Shown piece after piece: positions 9,539 to 24,608 of a stretch of 24,608 nucleotides of DNA (positions are counted from its first letter, which is position 1; the number at the start of each line of letters is the position of its first letter). The position numbers and the translations under genes are program-made. The notes beneath the pieces were generated by a model that saw only the letters and a list, made by a program, of their open reading frames with translations, searched no databases and had not been told where the DNA came from. Source of the DNA: a virus. Taxonomy: Duplodnaviria > Heunggongvirae > Uroviricota > Caudoviricetes. The stretch is taken from IMG/VR virus record IMGVR_UViG_2534682159_000013; one strand, written 5' to 3'.

Positions 9539-9793
9539 ATGAAGGTAAAAAGCATTGGCGCACTTATCGGACGAACTGAAGCGGCAGTGAGAACGAAGGC
9601 ACGGGAGTTGGGCATCAGCATGATGTTACGTGGTGATTTTCACCCGTCGGCAAAATATTCTCAGCGTGATATTGAGCTGGCGCGGCAACTGCATCAGAGA
9701 GGCATGCAAAGAAGGGAAATTGCCAGAAAATTAGGCATGCCGTTGCGCATAGTGAATAACTACGTTTATTTCGACAGGAGGGTTCAGGCGTGA
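9539..9793 (+). CDS. Hypothetical small basic HTH-like protein
   Basis: ATG at 9539 with GGGA 6 nt upstream; an alternative GTG at 9476 overlaps the upstream stop. Sequence 'GRTEAAVRTKARELGIS' and 'QRREIARKLGMP' look like DNA-binding helices. Confidence 0.5.
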   Translation: MKVKSIGALIGRTEAAVRTKARELGISMMLRGDFHPSAKYSQRDIELARQLHQRGMQRREIARKLGMPLRIVNNYVYFDRRVQA

Positions 9794-10095
9794 GGGTGAG
9801 CATTTATATCGCCGGTCCAATGACGGGATATGAAAATTTCAACCGCGAGGCGTTTCACAGGGCGGAAGAAGCACTGAAACGGGAAGGGCATACCGTTTTA
9901 AACCCGGCAGTACTTCCGGACGGGCTGACTCAGCCGCAGTACATGGATATTTGCATGGCAATGATTCGTTGTGTGGATGCGGTTTATATGCTGAAAGGCT
10001 GGCAGCGATCGGCAGGCGCTAAGGCAGAACTGGCACTGGCGGAGAAACTGGGACATGCGGTTATTTTCCAGGAGGCAACCAGTGAGCGAAATTAA
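9790..10095 (+). CDS. DUF4406-like (nucleoside 2-deoxyribosyltransferase-like fold) phage protein
   Basis: 101 aa from a GTG start with AGGAGG 8 nt upstream. N-terminal 'SIYIAGPMTG..NFNREAF' motif typical of this family (from memory). Confidence 0.6.
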   Translation: MRVSIYIAGPMTGYENFNREAFHRAEEALKREGHTVLNPAVLPDGLTQPQYMDICMAMIRCVDAVYMLKGWQRSAGAKAELALAEKLGHAVIFQEATSERN

Positions 10096-10244
10096 TTACC
10101 AGGAGCTACGGCAGGTGAAAGAGAAAGCATAATCCAGATCTGAATAATTAAAATCAGCACTGTAAATAAAATTTAATCCTTAACCGGAGGGATTTCTGCA
10201 CCCTCAGAACATCAGGAGACCGCCTGAAAGGGCGGTAATGAAAA

Positions 10245-10613
10245 ATGACTGAATTAACAAAAGAGCAATTAATCAAAGAAGCCAAATTAAAAATAGCGGT
10301 TGCGAAATGTTACCCTAATTCAGAGATGGCCAGGGTAGAGGGAGAGCTATTCAAAATTGCACTGGCATCGCTGGAGGCGGTTCCGGTGGCATGGCTGCAT
10401 TCAGACAATGGCCTGGGTATTCCAGCAATAACCAGGAGTAAAAACGTTGCTGATAGTTGGTTATCAAAGGGCTGGTATGTTCAGCCGTTATATGTAGCCC
10501 AACCTGTACCGGTGGTGCCGGATGCTCGTCCATCTTTAAATAATGGCATTGTCGGATTTGATGAAGGCTGGAATGCCTGCCGGGATGCCATGCTTAATGG
10601 AGATAAATCATGA
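10245..10613 (+). CDS. Hypothetical phage protein
   Basis: 122-aa ORF whose stop overlaps the next ATG (ATGA at 10610). Confidence 0.55.
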   Translation: MTELTKEQLIKEAKLKIAVAKCYPNSEMARVEGELFKIALASLEAVPVAWLHSDNGLGIPAITRSKNVADSWLSKGWYVQPLYVAQPVPVVPDARPSLNNGIVGFDEGWNACRDAMLNGDKS

Positions 10614-16870: not shown

Positions 16871-16946
16871 GGCCCTTTAGCTCAGTGGTGAGAGCGAGCG
16901 ACTCATAATCGCCAGGTCGCTGGTTCAAATCCAGCAAGGGCCACCA
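16871..16946 (+). tRNA. ileZ: tRNA-Ile2 (anticodon CAU; ileX/ileZ-like)
   Basis: Cloverleaf folded by hand: acceptor ggccctt/aagggcc, D-arm gctc..gagc, anticodon loop 'ctCATaa', T-loop 'ttcaaat', 3' CCA. Near-identical to my recollection of E. coli ileX. A CAU anticodon cannot be distinguished from Met by sequence alone. Confidence 0.85.
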
Positions 16947-16954
16947 TATCCATA

Positions 16955-17031
16955 CCGCCATTAGCTCATCGGGATAGAGCGCCAGCCTTCGAAGCTGGCT
17001 GCGCGGGGTTCGAGTCCTCGATGGCGGTCCA
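16955..17031 (+). tRNA. tRNA-Arg (anticodon UCG)
   Basis: Cloverleaf: acceptor ccgccat/atggcgg, D-arm gctc..gagc, anticodon stem ccagc/gctgg with loop 'ctTCGaa', T-arm cgggg ttcgagt cctcg, 3' CCA. Confidence 0.8.
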
Positions 17032-17309: not shown

Positions 17310-17738
17310 ATGTATTGCCGTGCTGTACCTGTTCTTGTTTTGATATTAGCCAGTCTGACAACTGGCTGCACAAAAGATGTATCGACAAATAATCATGATG
17401 CTTCTCTGTATCACTCAGATAAATTAATAAAGTCGCAAAAATTGAGCTCATCGGAACGTACCCCTGATGCCAGTGAAGAAATCCGGCAGTATGCCATTCA
17501 GGTCAGGAAAGCCATAGAAGAACAGTTAAAGGATGCGAGTAAGTATTCAGGAAAAGAGTGTTCACTGAGAATGTATATGGCCCCGAATGGTCTTCTGCTA
17601 CAGGTTAAAAGAGAAAGCGGTGATCCCGATTTATGTCGTGAAGCGATGAATGCAGTAAAGAATGCTGATATACCATCACCACCGTCTTCAGGAGTATATA
17701 AAGCATTTAGAAATGGCGTGTTGGATTTTAAACTCTGA
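17310..17738 (+). CDS. Lipoprotein with TolA C-terminal (TolAIII)-like domain
   Basis: 142-aa ORF with GGAGATGG Shine-Dalgarno. Signal peptide ending 'LASLTTGC' (lipobox-like). C-terminal 'YSGKECSLRMYMAPNGLLLQVKRESGDPDLCREAMNAVKNADIPSPPSSGVYKAFRNGVLDFKL' aligns along its length with my recollection of E. coli TolA domain III ('YAGKTCTLRIKLAPDGMLLDIKPEGGDPALCQAALAAAKLAKIPKPPSQAVYEVFKNAPLDFKP'). Confidence 0.8.
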   Translation: MYCRAVPVLVLILASLTTGCTKDVSTNNHDASLYHSDKLIKSQKLSSSERTPDASEEIRQYAIQVRKAIEEQLKDASKYSGKECSLRMYMAPNGLLLQVKRESGDPDLCREAMNAVKNADIPSPPSSGVYKAFRNGVLDFKL

Positions 17739-17874
17739 CAGGGGGAGAAGATTTTCTCCTGTCCTGATGATTTTGGGGCGCTGGAAAGATATTGTGCTGT
17801 GAAGTGTTAAATCCCTCACAATTCAGTAAGTTGACAGTTGCCTGTCAGACTGAGCATTTGTTAAAAAAATTTCG

Positions 17875-18052
17875 CATGGTGAATCCCCCTGTGCGGAGGG
17901 GCGACTGGTGAACGGTATGATCTCTTTGATGATCGTAAGCGAGAATACGCGGGTTTGGTGTCACCGGGCTGAACTCACCGGGAGGCACCCGGCACCATGC
18001 TCATGGTGATACAGAAATGCGGCTTCAGCCCCTCTCCGGAGGGGCTTTCTTA
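17875..18052 (+). ncRNA. Solitary copy (A) of the repeat-encoded structured RNA
   Basis: Conserved 5' module 'catggtgaatccccctgtgcggagggg', variable middle, conserved 3' module 'caccgggaggcacccggcaccatg', then terminator 'gcccctctccggaggggc' + T-rich tail. In the ATG frame there is a stop after 11 codons. Confidence 0.45.
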
Positions 18053-18204
18053 TGGACAAAAAAAGCCCGCGCTGGGAGACGCGGGCGGCAAGGAATAAAC
18101 AATAAAACGTGAAGTAATACTTCAACTGGCGAATAATACCCGACAGTAATCACTCTGCGCAATAGCGTGGCCTTTTTCGAATTGCGGGCTGTAGTCTCCC
18201 TTCT

Positions 18205-18370
18205 GCCGGGTGTCCTGGTTGCAGATTTCTTCATGGGGTAGGGTTCGGCAGTTAAAGCAGCGATGGCGCTGGGGCGTCGTGCAACTGGCGTTGAGCTGGA
18301 TACCGGGCGTTTTGAACAGATTGCGCAGGAAATCAGGGATGTATTTAGCGGGAGCGGTTTGCAGAAGTAA
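18205..18370 (+). pseudogene. 3' remnant of a second copy of the DNA methyltransferase gene
   Basis: Nucleotide homology to 16672-16830; the first ~100 nt are near-identical by eye. Encodes '..LVADFFMG*GSAVKAAMALGRRATGVELD..' with an in-frame TAG where the intact gene has a Ser codon; no 5' part of the gene is present. Confidence 0.7.
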
Positions 18371-18433
18371 TCTCCCAAAATGCCATTTTTGGAATATACT
18401 GGTATTAAGTCTTTTTGCTCAGGTTAATTCAAA

Positions 18434-19159
18434 ATGGATGTTGCCTGCTCTGTGGTCCTGATTCGCTATCCGATAGATATTTTTCTTGAAAAAGAAAAAG
18501 TTTCACTCGATGCCGGAAGTGTTATGCTTGTTGCCAGAAATATAAGAGGGCTTTTCTGTGCTTATGCCGACAGAGTGAAAATGGCAGATATAAGTAACAG
18601 CGTCGTCAATCAGTATCTGGAAAGGGAGTGTGAACTGACGGAGTATACACCGACAAAAATGCCTCTTTATTTGATGTCTGATATTTACAATACGGAACTG
18701 GCGGAGGCTTTAATAACCCAGCATAGTGAATCCAGTGATACTTTGAAGGATTTCTCTGTTATAACCGCATTTTCATGTATCTCCTTATTTGCAACAGACA
18801 GACGTCTGCCATTATTTTTGTCCGGTGCTGTAAATAATATCAGCTGTAAAGTAAGGGCTATAATTCAGACCGACATATCGGCAGGCTGGATGCTTGGTGT
18901 GATTGCATTACAATTGCATATGAGCGAAAGCTTGTTGAAGCGAAAACTTAAGGATGAAGGTTATAGCTTTAGTCGGTTGTTGCTGGAGGAGCGAATGCGT
19001 GTTGCTGTTAATCTTGTATGTTTCCAGCGAGAGTGTGGACAAGCGATAGCGGAAAAATGTGGTTACTCAAGTAAGTCCTACTTCATTTCTGTATTTCACC
19101 AGTATTATGGTGCACCACCTGAGAGCTATGCATATTTGCAGAAAGCAGACGTTATCTGA
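18434..19159 (+). CDS. AraC/XylS-family transcriptional regulator (prophage-encoded)
   Basis: 241-aa ORF. C-terminal double HTH ('WMLGVIALQLHMSESLLKRKLKDEGYSFSRLLLEERMRVAVNLV..AIAEKCGYSSKSYFISVFHQYYGAPP'). AT-rich. Confidence 0.8.
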   Translation: MDVACSVVLIRYPIDIFLEKEKVSLDAGSVMLVARNIRGLFCAYADRVKMADISNSVVNQYLERECELTEYTPTKMPLYLMSDIYNTELAEALITQHSESSDTLKDFSVITAFSCISLFATDRRLPLFLSGAVNNISCKVRAIIQTDISAGWMLGVIALQLHMSESLLKRKLKDEGYSFSRLLLEERMRVAVNLVCFQRECGQAIAEKCGYSSKSYFISVFHQYYGAPPESYAYLQKADVI

Positions 19160-19248
19160 TGTTTTTTCATCAGGCATATATTGATTGACTGTATTAGATA
19201 TAGTCTGAATGTGTTCAGCATAAAAAGTTATAATCATTTGGTGTTTGC

Positions 19249-19527
19249 GTGAATATTGATGAGAAAATCAGATGTAGCCAACTGTTACAGCGTATTGAAG
19301 CCGTCAATGTGGAACGAACAAAGGTCTTCAGTCGTCTGACAGTTTTATTTTGTACCCCTGATCGACGTTCAGGTCAGGAGATGGTTCTTCTGGATGTAGA
19401 TGCACTTCGGAACGTCTGTGAGGAGTTCACCGCGGCTAATTCGGAGTTACTGAGTCTTGTTCAGGAGTACAACAGAATTGCAGGTAGTAACGGTTTTGAT
19501 GAAATCAAAATTATATCCCGTGGATAA
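19249..19527 (+). CDS. Hypothetical small protein (weak call)
   Basis: 92-aa ORF from a GTG start; TATAAT at 19227-19232 immediately upstream; no Shine-Dalgarno. Confidence 0.3.
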   Translation: MNIDEKIRCSQLLQRIEAVNVERTKVFSRLTVLFCTPDRRSGQEMVLLDVDALRNVCEEFTAANSELLSLVQEYNRIAGSNGFDEIKIISRG

Positions 19528-19846
19528 AACATATCCTGTATATTTATGTTGTTACATACAGGCGCTTTTAGTATCTGCCGCACGGCAGTTGTACTTCAGA
19601 ATAAGATGCTTTTGTGACTGGTGGTGTTGTATCTGGGGTTAGCCAGTAGGCAGGTTCAGAGAGTCCGGTGGTAATTATGTGTATGCAGTGGTTGTTGCTG
19701 TACCGTGGGCAAGTTCTGGAACTGGCTTCGTCCATTGTAGATGATTGTTAGCTGGATATCAGTTACCTCATGGAAATGTTAAATGACTCACAATTCGGTT
19801 GATGGGCTATTGTCTGATCGATGGAAGTCTTGTAAAAACGAGCCAG

Positions 19847-20010
19847 CATAGTGAATCCCCCTGTGCGGAGGGGCGTCTGACATGGTCTCCATAGCGATGG
19901 TCACAATACGCAGATTCAGTAGTCAGGCTGAATCTACCGGGAGGCACCCGGCACTATGCTGCTTATGGTGTATACATAGCGATCGGCCCCTCTCCGGAGG
20001 GGCTTTTTTT
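19847..20010 (+). ncRNA. Repeat-encoded structured RNA, copy B
   Basis: 5' 'catAgtg' pairs with 3' 'cacTatg' (compensatory change relative to the other copies); no ATG at the 5' module. Confidence 0.45.
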
Positions 20011-20105
20011 GTGCGGGAAAAGGCTGTGTTGTTAAGTGTTAAATTCCTCACAGTTCAGATGGTTGATGCTTGCCTGTCTGAGGGGGAGTTGTTAAAAAAG
20101 TTCTG

Positions 20106-20279
20106 CATGGTGAATCCCCCTGTGCGGAGGGGCGACTGGTGTGATTTGCATCTTTTCTGTTGTAGGCAATGCAAACGCGGGTTCAGGGACACCAGACTGG
20201 ACTCACCGGGAGGCACCCGGCACCATGTTCATGATGATACAGATACGCAGTGTCAGCCCCTCTCCTGAGGGGCTTTTTT
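20106..20279 (+). ncRNA. Repeat-encoded structured RNA, copy C
   Basis: 5' catggtg pairs with 3' caccatg. Variable region carries nested stems 'ctggtgt..acaccag' and 'tttgcat..atgcaaa'. Confidence 0.45.
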
Positions 20280-21023: not shown

Positions 21024-22958
21024 ATGGCATTTAAACACTACGATGTGGTCAGGGCGGCATCGCCGTCAGACCTTGCTGAACGACTGACACAAAAACTGAA
21101 GGAGGGCTGGCAGCCATTTGGCAGTCCGGTGGCCATCACGCCTTATACCCTGATGCAGGCCATTGCGGCGGAAGGTGATGTCACCACACCAGTGGCGGTG
21201 ACCGGTAATGAGGGTAAGGCGGTGGCTGTCAGTGCCACCAGCGACCCGGAGTATTACTTTGTTGTGGTTCTGGCAGGGCAGTCAAATGGCATGTCGTATG
21301 GTGAAGGTCTTCCGCTGCCGGAGACATATGACCGCCCGGACCCGCGTATTAAGCAGCTGGCGCGCCGCAGTACGGTGACACCGGGCGGTGCAGCATGCAA
21401 ATATAACGACATCATTCCGGCGGACCATTGTCTGCATGATGTGCAGGACATGAGCCGCCTTAACCATCCGAAAGCGGACCTGTCAAAGGGGCAGTACGGA
21501 ACCGTGGGGCAGGGACTGCATATCGCCAAAAAACTGCTGCCGTTTATACCGGCGAATGCGGGCATTCTGCTGGTTCCGTGCTGTCGTGGTGGTTCAGCGT
21601 TCACCACCGGAGCTGATGGCACATACAGTGACGCGAGTGGTGCCTCGGAGAATTCAACCCGCTGGGGTATGGACAAGCCGCTGTATAAGGACCTTATCGG
21701 TCGAACAAAAGCAGCACTGAAGAAGAGCCCGAAAAATGTGCTGTTGCCGTGGTGTGGATGCAGGGGAATTGATTTTGGCGGTACGCCGGTAAATCACGCA
21801 GCACAGTTTGGTGCGCTGGTTGATAAATTCCGTGCAGACCTGGCGGATATGGCAGGTCAGTGCGTCGGTGGCTCTGCTGGCGGTGTTCCCTGGATATGTG
21901 GAGATACGACGTATTTCTGGAAGCAGAAGAACGAATCCACGTACCAGACGGTGTACGGCAGCTATAAAAACAAAACGGAAAAGAATATCCATTTCGTACC
22001 GTTCATGACGGATGAGAACGGGGTGAATGTGCCGACGAACAAACCGGAAGAAGACCCGGACATTCCGGGTATCGGGTATTACGGTTCGAAATGGCGTGAC
22101 AGCTCAGCCACCTGGACGTCACAGGACAGGGCGAGCCATTTCAGCACCTGGGCACGCCGGGGGATTATTTCCGACCGTCTGGCAACGGCGATTCTGATTC
22201 ATGCAGGACGAACCACAGTAAAAGTCGATGCTCCATCTTCTGAAACTGGCGCACCGACGCCATCACCGTCAGAAAATGAAGCGGTAAGCACAACAACACT
22301 GCTGTCTTACCGTGCCAGTGAGTCTGAAGGGAGGCTGACCGAACAGGGCTGGAGTGCTGGAGGAGGTAAAGCGGAAATTGTTGCCGATGAAGGTGCAACA
22401 GGTGGTACCGCGATGAAGCTGAGTAAGGAGACAGGAGTGGGGGCATGGTATCTGGAGCATGATGCCGGTACTGGCGCTGAACTACTGAAAAATGGCGGTT
22501 TAATCAGCTGCCGCTTTAAGGCATCCGGTGAACTGGTAGCAAATCAGTATGTCATTGCACTTTACTGGCCGGTTTCCTCTCTGCCGCAGGGTGTCACCCT
22601 GACAGGGGATGCAGGGAATAATCTGCTGGCAGCGTTCTACATCCAGACAGATGCAAAAGACCTGAATGTGATGTACCACAATGCGAAAGTGGCGACAAAC
22701 AACCTGAAGCTGGGAAGCTTTGGCGCATTTGATAACGAATGGCATACGCTGGCCTTCCGCTTTGCCGGGAATAACAGCCTTCAGGTGACGCCGGTTCTTG
22801 ATGGTCAGGATGGCACACCGTTCACGCTGACGCAGTCACCGGTCAGTGCCTTTGCGGCGGATAAACTGCATGTGACAGACATTACCAAAGGTGCGACTTA
22901 CCCGGTACTGATAGACAGCATTACGGTGGAAGTGAATAACGCGGATGCCGCGGCATGA
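21024..22958 (+). CDS. nanS: NanS-p-like sialate O-acetylesterase (SASA/SGNH domain plus C-terminal beta-rich domain)
   Basis: 644-aa ORF. 'FVVVLAGQSNGMSYGEG' (GQSN esterase motif). Size and position (late region, upstream of holin S) match the NanS-p/YjhS-like gene of Stx phages. Confidence 0.8.
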   Translation: MAFKHYDVVRAASPSDLAERLTQKLKEGWQPFGSPVAITPYTLMQAIAAEGDVTTPVAVTGNEGKAVAVSATSDPEYYFVVVLAGQSNGMSYGEGLPLPETYDRPDPRIKQLARRSTVTPGGAACKYNDIIPADHCLHDVQDMSRLNHPKADLSKGQYGTVGQGLHIAKKLLPFIPANAGILLVPCCRGGSAFTTGADGTYSDASGASENSTRWGMDKPLYKDLIGRTKAALKKSPKNVLLPWCGCRGIDFGGTPVNHAAQFGALVDKFRADLADMAGQCVGGSAGGVPWICGDTTYFWKQKNESTYQTVYGSYKNKTEKNIHFVPFMTDENGVNVPTNKPEEDPDIPGIGYYGSKWRDSSATWTSQDRASHFSTWARRGIISDRLATAILIHAGRTTVKVDAPSSETGAPTPSPSENEAVSTTTLLSYRASESEGRLTEQGWSAGGGKAEIVADEGATGGTAMKLSKETGVGAWYLEHDAGTGAELLKNGGLISCRFKASGELVANQYVIALYWPVSSLPQGVTLTGDAGNNLLAAFYIQTDAKDLNVMYHNAKVATNNLKLGSFGAFDNEWHTLAFRFAGNNSLQVTPVLDGQDGTPFTLTQSPVSAFAADKLHVTDITKGATYPVLIDSITVEVNNADAAA

Positions 22959-23108: not shown

Positions 23109-23288
23109 ATGACATTTCTGAACCAGTTAATGCTGTACTTCTGTACGGTGGTCTGTGTGCTGTATCTCCTTTCGGGCGGATACCGGGCCATGCGTGACTT
23201 CTGGCGCAGACAGATTGACAAAAGGGCCGCTGAGAAAATCAGCGCCAGTCAGTCAGCCGGAAGCAAACCCGAAGAGCCGCTCATTTAG
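23109..23288 (+). CDS. Small membrane protein (59 aa), hypothetical
   Basis: 'MTFLNQLMLYFCTVVCVLYLLSGGYRAMRDFWRRQIDKRAAEKISASQSAGSKPEEPLI': one transmembrane helix then a basic tail. Not in the supplied track, which shows an overlapping out-of-frame ORF instead. Confidence 0.4.
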   Translation: MTFLNQLMLYFCTVVCVLYLLSGGYRAMRDFWRRQIDKRAAEKISASQSAGSKPEEPLI

Positions 23289-23328: not shown

Positions 23329-23601
23329 ATGTCAGAAATTACATCCCTGGTCACTGCTGAAGCAGTGAAGGAAGTCCTGCGCTCTGAAGAAGTCCTGAGC
23401 GCACTGAAACAGAAACTCCGCCATAAGCTGGAAGCGCGTCTTGATGCAGAAGTGGATGCCATTCTGGATGAGCTGCTTGGTGTACAGGCAGAGCCAGCGA
23501 CTGAAGCGGGAGATACCACCGCAGAGAGCGGTGAAGTTCAGCCTGAATCACCGGTCGCCGATGCGACTGAACCGCAACCCGAATCGGTCATGATGCTGTA
23601 A
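23329..23601 (+). CDS. Hypothetical acidic protein (90 aa)
   Basis: ATG at 23329 with GAGAAAA upstream; helical N-terminus and an acidic, Glu/Pro/Ala-rich C-terminus. The track ORF 23155-23601 is the same frame extended upstream. Confidence 0.5.
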
Positions 23602-23677: not shown

Positions 23678-23893
23678 ATGTACCAGATGGAAAAAATCAC
23701 AACAGGTGTGTCATACACCACGTCAGCGGTGGGAACGGGCTACTGGTTCCTGCAGTTGCTGGACAGGGTTTCCCCGTCTCAGTGGGCGGCAATAGGCGTG
23801 CTGGGGAGTCTGCTGTTTGGGCTGCTGACATATCTGACGAACCTGTATTTCAAAATTAAAGAAGACCGGCGTAAGGCGGCGCGGGGAGAGTAG
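23678..23893 (+). CDS. S: Holin S (lambdoid, dual-start Met1/Met4)
   Basis: 71 aa '[71 protein letters not shown]': two transmembrane helices, charged C-terminus, and a near match to my recollection of the Stx-phage holin. Confidence 0.9.
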
Positions 23894-23896
23894 ACG

Positions 23897-24418
23897 ATGA
23901 ATAAACAATACGAACTGGTTGTTAAAGGGATAAATATTTACCCGGATAAGATTACTGTTACTGTGGCGCTGGAAACTGGTGGGTATACGTCACTGTTGTT
24001 GCCAAATGTGGTGATTGATCTTGATCGTGTTGAAGGTGCCCCGCTGGAGTTTTACGAAGCTGAGGCGAAAAAGAAGGCGAAGCAGTTTTTCATGGATATT
24101 GCTGCCGGGTTATGTGAAGGGAACGAACCGTTGCCGGAAAAGCGCCTCTGTTCAGAAGAGCGGTATACCATACAAATTAACAATGCATATAACACGATAC
24201 AGTCAGAAAAAGATGATATCGAATCACGCATTGAAAAACTGGAGAACAGCGTCGTTGAACTGAATAAAAAACTGTCGGTGCAGATCCCTTCCGAAGGTGA
24301 AAAAAAACGCCGTGATGAGCAGTTCGCGGCGTTTTACGATTATTGCCGGAAAGTGATGAGCAGAAATCTCGCAGAGTGTTTCCGTATTCAAAAAAAACAG
24401 AGAGCGCTCTGCAAATAG
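23897..24418 (+). CDS. Hypothetical 173-aa protein in the position normally held by the endolysin
   Basis: ATG 4 nt after the holin stop with GGAGAG upstream. AT-rich. N-terminal beta-like segment and C-terminal K/E-rich helix; no lysozyme, transglycosylase or amidase motif recognised. Confidence 0.6.
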   Translation: MNKQYELVVKGINIYPDKITVTVALETGGYTSLLLPNVVIDLDRVEGAPLEFYEAEAKKKAKQFFMDIAAGLCEGNEPLPEKRLCSEERYTIQINNAYNTIQSEKDDIESRIEKLENSVVELNKKLSVQIPSEGEKKRRDEQFAAFYDYCRKVMSRNLAECFRIQKKQRALCK

Positions 24419-24437
24419 TGAGATTCTGGATAATTTT

Positions 24438-24608
24438 TTAAAGGGGACGCATCTCGCCAGTGATTGTTTCATTGCTCATTCTTTTGGTGGCTTTCATGAG
24501 GCCATCAAACATGATGTTGAGAGAAGTCCAGGTATCCTCTGTTCCATTCCCGTAAGCATCGAAATAGACACAAATACGATAACCGGTGAACTCGTTACCG
24601 CCGGAGTC
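24438..24608 (-). CDS. 3' end of a minus-strand ORF continuing beyond the window (partial)
   Basis: Open frame from the window edge to a stop at 24438-24440: '..DSGGNEFTGYRICVYFDAYGNGTEDTWTSLNIMFDGLMKATKRMSNETITGEMRPL*'. Convergent with the 173-aa ORF. Not in the supplied track. Confidence 0.3.
   Translation of the reverse strand, partial: DSGGNEFTGYRICVYFDAYGNGTEDTWTSLNIMFDGLMKATKRMSNETITGEMRPL

Follow-up and report, generated by a model that had tools for sequence, protein, structure and literature searches.

The question raised by the right end of IMG/VR virus record IMGVR_UViG_2534682159_000013 (24,608 nucleotides (nt) of Caudoviricetes DNA; the whole of this stretch is called the window below) is what an open reading frame (ORF) of 173 amino acids (aa) is doing directly after a holin gene, where the endolysin is expected, and opposite a minus-strand ORF that runs off the edge. 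The original prediction, made from the letters alone, described the product as unknown and left two options, namely, an accessory gene inserted between the holin gene S and the endolysin gene R, or a non-canonical lysis cassette. We found that the 173-aa ORF is neither an oddity nor an endolysin, and that the puzzle of an unknown ORF at the endolysin position dissolves into an accessory gene of a known family truncated by an antisense moron. Taken as a whole, with the roles proposed for its parts included, the best explanation, which we regard as probable, is that a YdfR-family gene follows an S21-type holin gene, that the C module of the family has been replaced by an antisense moron cassette, and that R lies beyond the edge of the window.

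Well above what chance would give, the 173-aa protein matches PF07041 (DUF1327/YdfR) with 117.5 bits, against a gathering cut-off of 25 (E = 3.2e-34; residues 1–96 on profile positions 1–90 of 93), and phrog_2091 with E = 1.3e-85 (residues 1–168 on profile positions 1–182 of 183); phrog_1085 is also matched, over the first 176 positions of that profile. All 250 relatives found in a search of 5.8 billion proteins belong to PF07041 and are named DUF1327 or YdfR, and the exact protein is already present in NCBI, from four contigs only, as "DUF1327 domain-containing protein"; the protein is therefore no orphan. The founding member of the family, and the sole one with experimental data, is YdfR of Escherichia coli K-12 (b1555), which is 38% identical to the window protein over 99 aa and is encoded in the Qin prophage in the order essQ (holin), ydfR, rrrQ (lysozyme), rzpQ. 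Like the window ORF, K-12 ydfR encodes a PF07041 domain, occupies the same place in the cassette and starts 4 nt after the holin stop; unlike it, the K-12 protein has 103 aa and consists of module A only, without modules B or C (described below), and the stop codon of its gene overlaps the lysozyme start, with no cargo gene after it. The genomic context of the family was sampled at 80 IMG/VR loci retrieved by the family profile. At approximately 75 of them an S21-type holin gene lies 5′ of the family gene and an R-type lysozyme gene 3′, and the gap between the holin stop and the family gene is 3–4 nt in all but one (13 nt). Since these loci and K-12 share the holin–ydfR–lysozyme order, the gene is a regular resident of S21-type lysis cassettes; few residents of lambdoid lysis cassettes are as regular, and yet as unexplained, as YdfR/DUF1327.

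At the holin end of the locus, the following features were assigned (window coordinates).

23678–23893, plus strand: 71-aa class II holin of the S21 (pinholin) type, assigned by PF04971; its dual start is Met1/Met4 (MYQM...).
23883–23896, plus strand: coupling junction, comprising the GGGGAGAG Shine-Dalgarno sequence, the holin stop TAG (23891–23893) and a 3-nt ACG spacer, read directly from the sequence.
23897–24418, plus strand: the 173-aa YdfR/DUF1327-family ORF with an ATG start, from the ORF list and the PF07041 and phrog_2091 matches.

The PF04971 match of the holin is to Phage_holin_2_1 (E = 7e-33), and its RefSeq name is "class II holin family protein". As initially proposed, the two genes are tightly coupled: the junction reads GGGGAGAG-TAG-ACG-ATG, which places the ATG (23897) at position +4 after the holin stop, and the GGAG of the Shine-Dalgarno sequence lies 8 nt 5′ of this ATG, within the end of the holin gene. 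The ORF is also AT-rich, as had been noted, with a G+C content of 43.5% vs. 54.2% for the holin gene and 55.1% for R. Hydropathy was expressed as the 19-residue Kyte–Doolittle mean (KD19), the maximum of which is 1.08 for the 173-aa protein and 1.70 for the holin; accordingly, the protein has no transmembrane segment, of which a holin or antiholin would have at least one, and no signal peptide was found in it. The claim that lysozyme, transglycosylase and amidase features are absent was borne out, as neither these nor peptidase families were matched in Pfam or NCBIfam. The search of PDB sequences gave no enzyme (best match a PARP1 fragment, E = 0.003), and the fold search of PDB with the YdfR-family model gave nothing at E ≤ 0.001, the latter being uninformative, since only module A of the model is usable. 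Antiholins, spanins and lysis regulators showed no similarity to the protein in Pfam, PHROGs, PDB sequences or PDB folds, and no defence model of PADLOC-DB v2 matched it.

The rest of the lysis cassette can be read from chromosomal relatives. In 120 complete E. coli genomes, a match covers at least 80% of the last kb of the window, and the best-matching locus (99.9% identical; hereafter L001) contains, in order, genes for a SASA-family esterase (NanS-p type), DUF1378, DUF826, a class II holin, a DUF1327 protein (flagged as a pseudogene), 1 kb of unannotated DNA, a lysozyme, small ORFs, a lysis protein (Rz) and terminase. The lysozyme (L001 10601–11134) belongs to PF00959 (E = 7e-25) and carries an E-x8-D-x5-T motif after a hydrophobic, Ala/Gly-rich N-terminus (KD19 1.74); judging by the motif, it looks like a signal-anchor-release (SAR) endolysin of the R21 type. 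Projected onto the window, R would start at about position 25201, which is approximately 590 nt past the edge; its distance from the stop codon of the 173-aa ORF would be 783 nt. As the lysozyme and Rz genes follow in a 99.9% identical locus, the endolysin is outside the window, not missing. Hence, the cassette is of the ordinary pinholin type (S21-type holin, YdfR gene, here the antisense moron, R21-like lysozyme, Rz), and the window, whose end falls within this cassette, belongs to a lambdoid E. coli prophage that resembles Stx phages but lacks stx.

The idea of a non-canonical cassette is thus abandoned, and the other option of the original prediction, an accessory gene between S and R, was the better one, though it merges two elements, a resident YdfR gene and an 800-bp antisense moron cassette. 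R, Rz and the start of the convergent gene, which it advised to look for to the right, are all present in L001. A known endolysin class or a common structural accessory protein, revealed by a sensitive homology search, was to count as its refutation; what emerged is not far from this, namely a common phage accessory protein, which belongs to no endolysin class and is not structural. The question of the lysis cassette is answered as ordinary, and the residual interest lies in the cargo slot next to it and in an undescribed, usually unannotated family of 210-aa proteins, both treated below.

The alignment of the YdfR family is modular, and the window ORF can be divided as follows.

23897–24145, plus strand: module A, aa 1–83, the DUF1327 core of three β-strands and a helix (alignment and AlphaFold2 (AF2) model).
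24146–24390, plus strand: linker and module B, aa 84–164, with long coiled-coil-like helices (SEKDDIESRIEKLENSVVELNKKL...FAAFYDYC...) (alignment, AF2 and blastn).
24391–24418, plus strand: non-homologous tail, Q165–K173 and the stop codon (blastn breakpoint and side-by-side comparison of the sequences).

In the family alignment, module B is a helical, coiled-coil-like stretch (SEKDDIESRIEKLE...FAAFYDYC...), the region giving merely weak coiled-coil matches in Pfam, and it is followed in the longest proteins by module C of about 120 aa, which ends in ...LTYLKVRI. A length census separates three forms: A (103–120 aa), A-B (168–211 aa) and A-B-C (287–329 aa). Because A-only forms, including K-12 YdfR, and C-less A-B forms are common and widespread, module C is dispensable for a stable family member; only module A is always kept, which indicates the part to be tested. 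The ratio of non-synonymous to synonymous substitution rates (dN/dS) against four relatives is 0.29–0.58 for module A and 0.25–0.52 for module B, and these values (0.25–0.58 overall) indicate purifying selection on both. The predicted structure of the 173-aa protein is a small β3-α domain followed by long helices; in the AF2 model of the family (58 sequences), residues 1–70 have a predicted local distance difference test score (pLDDT) of 64–90.

Among the closest known relatives of the window ORF are the phrog_2091-type A-B proteins (169–211 aa; in PhiR12_2, PhiR5_1 and many IMG/VR prophages), which share its two modules and nearly its length. Between their genes and R, too, there are a convergent cargo gene and the 80-nt module; the differences lie in the cargo, of 86 aa (phrog_2572), in having a C-terminus of their own (...FEEGKSLQ) and in identity, 52–86%. 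Another close group are the 287/296-aa proteins (e.g., P0004 and P0074), encoded after the same holin gene, which, unlike the window ORF, retain module C of approximately 120 aa, with R starting 36–42 nt further on and no convergent gene.

Comparison with the latter group locates the breakpoint. The window protein is 99% identical to the 287-aa A-B-C proteins, P0004 among them, through residue 164 (...SRNLAECF), and then continues as RIQKKQRALCK up to the stop. According to blastn of L001 against a cargo-free locus of the 287-aa type (L012), homology covers L001 9036–9791 and 10592–11200, and the 800 bp between them (9792–10591) stand in place of 396 bp of L012, made up of module C and of the 36 nt that separate it from R. 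In the window, DNA homology to the 287/296-aa members stops at 24390; the right end of the cassette is 9 nt before the ATG of R. Both L001 and the window carry this insert; L012, L013 and L014 do not, and there only 36 nt separate ydfR from R. The G+C content of the insert is 45.1% vs. 54–55% for the holin gene and R. On the minus strand, it has three parts: an upstream stretch of about 120 nt that contains a hairpin, a 210-aa ORF, and a terminator-like hairpin with a U-run. The window copy thus descends from the 287-aa A-B-C form, the cassette having replaced module C and the spacer. The parts of the cassette that fall into the window, and the A-run at its left end, are the following.

24391–24608, no strand: left 218 bp of the 800-bp replacement cassette (blastn of L001 against L012).
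24390–24397, no strand: A8 homopolymer, the T-run of the predicted minus-strand terminator (sequence comparison).
24398–24412, minus strand: hairpin resembling a terminator, GCAGAG-CGCU-CUCUGU and then U7; the 210-aa gene ends about 26 nt before it (consensus scan and folding).
24438–24608, minus strand: 3′ end of the convergent 210-aa gene, comprising 56 codons and the stop; the full ORF is present in L001 (9838–10470).

The hairpin folds at −8.2 kcal/mol, no better than shuffled sequences, and it is its position alone that argues for a terminator. Since the U-run of this predicted terminator is the A-run of the plus strand, the 173-aa ORF takes its last nine codons and its stop from the antisense of this terminator, and the 173-aa end is a by-product. 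The length of the run determines where the ORF ends. Nearly all relatives have a run of seven A, which was found in L001, in phage Stx1_499 and in approximately 17 of the 21 IMG/VR loci with the 210-aa cargo; with A7, the frame stays open to 263 aa, running antisense across the cargo gene (among complete genomes, this reading was followed in full for L001), and with A8 it reads 173 aa. For a 111-nt probe across the run, the best match in the 133 complete E. coli genomes that carry the cassette was 99.1%, i.e. a difference in at least one position, and the exact A8 string had no match in IMG/VR. Frameshifted sister loci give products of 140, 152 and 187 aa. The window contains a second A8 run, at 24300–24307, and slippage there yields the 140-aa form (...EGEKKTPR) in L016 and L097. 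The 3′ end of this YdfR copy is without visible constraint.

As for function, data on the K-12 homologue come from a single study (PMC13232886, RNA Biol 2026), the only publication in our literature search to treat ydfR meaningfully; DUF1327 is mentioned in passing in one paper. K-12 YdfR gives two-hybrid signals with RNase E residues 1–597, co-purifies Rne 1–598 from lysates through a surface within YdfR residues 1–72, and brings down DNase-resistant nucleic acid, i.e. co-purifying RNA (PMC13232886). By sequence, module A is the counterpart of this RNase E-binding part. One can envisage the following scheme: YdfR is translated from the Q-dependent late transcript via the coupling to S and acts as a soluble cytoplasmic protein rather than a lytic enzyme; module A may bind RNA and/or the catalytic half of RNase E, as K-12 YdfR is reported to do, so that RNA decay would be adjusted late in infection; and module B may serve oligomerisation. 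By analogy with K-12, we tentatively favour such an RNase E/RNA-directed accessory role in late infection over one in lysis timing, as a possibility rather than an expectation.

Phages do encode modulators of RNase E and the degradosome, such as T7 gp0.7, phiKZ Dip and T4 Srd. The action proposed for module A resembles theirs, in that a phage protein binds host RNase E during lytic growth; we know of no similarity of YdfR to any of them in sequence or fold.

Several points weigh against the overall explanation. The RNase E data were obtained for a homologue of only 38% identity, by two-hybrid assay and co-purification from lysates without a nuclease control. Overexpression of YdfR barely altered the transcriptome (PMC13232886). 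The AF2 family model is poor outside module A (mean pLDDT 53.9). The Prokaryotic Genome Annotation Pipeline (PGAP) flags the L001 gene as a pseudogene ("incomplete; missing C-terminus"), and the frameshifted variants of the sister loci mean that the window copy may be decaying. On the cassette side, no σ70 consensus promoter was found in L001 9000–10700, in addition to the terminator hairpin performing no better than shuffled ones.

The pseudogene flag leads to one of the two rivals that survive best, according to which the 173-aa ORF is a decaying remnant that lost its function with module C and is kept only because it lies between S and R. Beside the PGAP label, the instability of the 3′ end fits this view, given that the product has 173 or 263 aa depending on the length of the A-run and is frameshifted in sister loci, as does the rarity of the A8 form. 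The flag is, however, explained by the variable, frameshifted 3′ end itself, whereas both modules A and B have remained intact, with 99% identity to the full-length forms and dN/dS below 1, and the coupling signals to S are preserved; moreover, the abundance of A-only and C-less A-B forms shows that module C can be spared. We consider decay unlikely.

We assign a similarly low probability to the other rival, that YdfR proteins regulate lysis by pinholins and SAR endolysins, through its timing or the state of the envelope, and are not modulators of RNase E or RNA. The invariable coupling after S21-type holins and before R21-like lysozymes speaks for it, and so does an earlier genetic screen that tied ydfR to envelope integrity, as cited in PMC13232886. 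However, the absence of a transmembrane segment and signal peptide and of any similarity to antiholins, spanins or lysis regulators is at odds with such a role, and the linkage to S and R may merely reflect inheritance as one mosaic module.

The convergent ORF had been described as partial and running off the window, and indeed 24438–24608 are the last 56 codons of the 210-aa ORF that is complete in L001. The gene is present at at least 99% identity in 133 of 5426 complete E. coli genomes (approximately 2.5%), in up to four copies per genome, the carriers including many O26, O145, O111, O91 and other Shiga-toxin-producing strains, and the protein is 100% identical in eight Stx1a/Stx2a phage records. 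Most RefSeq/PGAP records show no feature at this place. No match to the protein was found in Pfam, NCBIfam, PHROGs or PADLOC. Word-seeded searches recovered 17 clusters of homologues, all of about 210 aa and from 65% down to 30% identical, from Salmonella, Klebsiella, Yersinia, Photorhabdus, Xenorhabdus, Moellerella, Symbiopectobacterium and Pseudomonas, among others; an exhaustive profile search gave 251 clusters at E ≤ 1e-3, 183 of them at E ≤ 1e-10. Ten longer relatives compared with Pfam had no domain over the homologous region, the only match being a DUF2934 tail in one of them.

The AlphaFold model of the 210-aa protein is an α+β fold with high scores (pLDDT 82.8; predicted template modelling (TM) score 0.82). 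Foldseek found no PDB structure at E ≤ 0.001 (best TM score 0.23) and, in BFVD, only uncharacterised jumbo-phage proteins (TM ≤ 0.36), and a profile search of PDB sequences with the family gave zero matches. No signal peptide was found in the protein, nor a hydrophobic segment by KD19. Ten positions, R15, E47, D48, N69, E76, D79, C80, R104, R110 and N115, are 83–99% conserved across 143 diverse members with a median identity of 27%, which suggests a catalytic or ligand-binding site and, for the protein, a function as an enzyme or ligand-binding protein.

In most RefSeq annotations, the convergent ORF is implicitly taken for a chance antisense ORF, and it is indeed unannotated in most of the 133 carrier genomes and overlaps the 263-aa read-through form of ydfR. 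This view is very improbable in the light of full-length homologues of about 210 aa, 30–65% identical, in at least nine genera and at quite different genomic positions, the 183 clusters at E ≤ 1e-10, the confident AF2 model and the GGAG that precedes the ATG. Weaker still, and effectively refuted, is the reading of the 173-aa protein as a non-canonical endolysin or other cell-wall enzyme replacing R, which has only the position directly after the holin in its favour and which we rejected on the lack of an enzymatic signal in Pfam, NCBIfam, PHROGs and PDB sequences and folds, the predicted small β-α domain with long helices, and the bona fide PF00959 lysozyme that follows in L001.

The 210-aa gene behaves as a moron, being a single gene that interrupts a conserved gene order, is absent from close relatives and has a divergent G+C content. 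In eight of the nine enterobacterial contexts examined, members of its family are lone prophage genes antisense to late or tail genes that flank them on at least one side, the ninth (L005) being a prophage remnant beside sodC. The positions occupied are ydfR–R in the present case and Q–holin in two prophages of Salmonella, of which one has Kiwa next to it; in Klebsiella and Yersinia the gene separates tail genes I and J, on a short metagenome contig (L010) it comes right behind tail gene I, and in Moellerella and Photorhabdus it belongs to immI-like accessory regions. In the Salmonella P22-like prophage of locus L008 (9618–11257), the 219-aa homologue in the Q-to-holin region lies approximately 3 kb from the Kiwa pair (KwaA/KwaB), which is noted here as context only.

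The layout suggests expression in the lysogen: the 210-aa gene would be active in the prophage, and after induction the late transcription running towards it would shut it down. A comparable arrangement is known for lambda bor, a lysogenic-conversion moron that encodes a lipoprotein of about 97 aa, lies downstream of Rz and is transcribed against the late operon. Both are single late-region genes by the lysis cassette that could be expressed while the late genes are silent; unlike bor, the 210-aa gene encodes no signal peptide or hydrophobic segment, has no similarity to a named family and lies between ydfR and R. Identity with a known anti-phage defence system was discarded for both the 210-aa and the 173-aa proteins, as PADLOC gave no match. 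This prophage gene, whose family lacks any description, can reasonably be considered a candidate for a role in fitness or defence.

The cassette is one of several passengers at the same place. Among the 80 loci, R starts 36–55 nt after the family gene where there is no insert (the 296-, 329- and 328-aa forms, a single 325-aa locus and some 268-aa forms), and 233–894 nt after it where a convergent ORF is present. Every C-less A-B form among them carries a cargo, and the cargoes belong to four unrelated convergent families, of 210 aa, 86 aa (phrog_2572), 70/87 aa (phrog_18136) and 104 aa (phrog_1853). All four types have in common, directly before the ATG of R, a module of about 80 nt with a hairpin, which cargo-free loci lack.

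L001 10515–10600 (approximately window 25115–25200, i.e. outside it), no strand: 80-nt module with the hairpin GCCAGTG-CCCAC-CACTGG, also present in L096, L120 and L081.

Two natural variants of this hairpin favour opposite strands in the alignment. The most economical reading of the module is a common promoter and leader for the leftward cargo genes; alternatively, it is possibly a recombination site. It contains no consensus promoter and matches no Rfam family. The ydfR–R junction is a recurrent landing site for backward-facing passengers that share a right-end module. A bolder proposal, which we put forward as speculative, is that it constitutes an undescribed exchange slot for antisense passengers, and that the 210-aa cargo represents a new family, a lysogen-expressed effector spreading among prophages of Shiga toxin-producing E. 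coli (STEC). Were this true, the effector, e.g., a single-gene anti-phage defence or a lysogenic-conversion enzyme, would have been missed by most annotations.

Some further observations concern the cargoes. The 86-aa convergent gene of PhiR12_2 (L003 3458–3718) and PhiR5_1 (L004 3584–3844) is annotated as "DUF1823 containing protein"; this label is unsupported (15.3 bits against a cut-off of 25, E = 0.023), the protein being a member of phrog_2572. In one IMG/VR prophage, the ydfR–R slot contains an IS1 transposase gene (PF03400, E = 1e-74; L095 3220–3723). Prophages with the 296-aa YdfR form carry a lone antisense gene of 248 aa between Q and the holin gene (L014 1797–2543, minus strand; precomputed match to PF20355, DUF6650), which marks a further moron site at the opposite side of the holin gene.

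The Rfam scan of the S-to-R region gave no match. To the left of the holin gene, the window encodes, at 21024–22958, a 644-aa NanS-p-type esterase with DUF1737, SASA and DUF6645 domains, and between it and the holin gene lie DUF1378 (23109–23288) and DUF826 (23329–23601), the block usual downstream of the stx position. Further to the left, ARAGORN predicts tRNA-Met(CAT) and tRNA-Arg(TCG) at 16871–17031, the first of which is a tRNA-Ile in the RefSeq annotation, and after the tRNAs, at 17310–20268, there are ORFs of 142 aa (annotated as TolA-like), 241 aa (helix-turn-helix) and 128 aa. No pair of stx-sized ORFs was found in this stretch (16871–17031 and 17310–20268), and in the related phage Stx1_499 stx1AB lies directly 5′ of the esterase gene.

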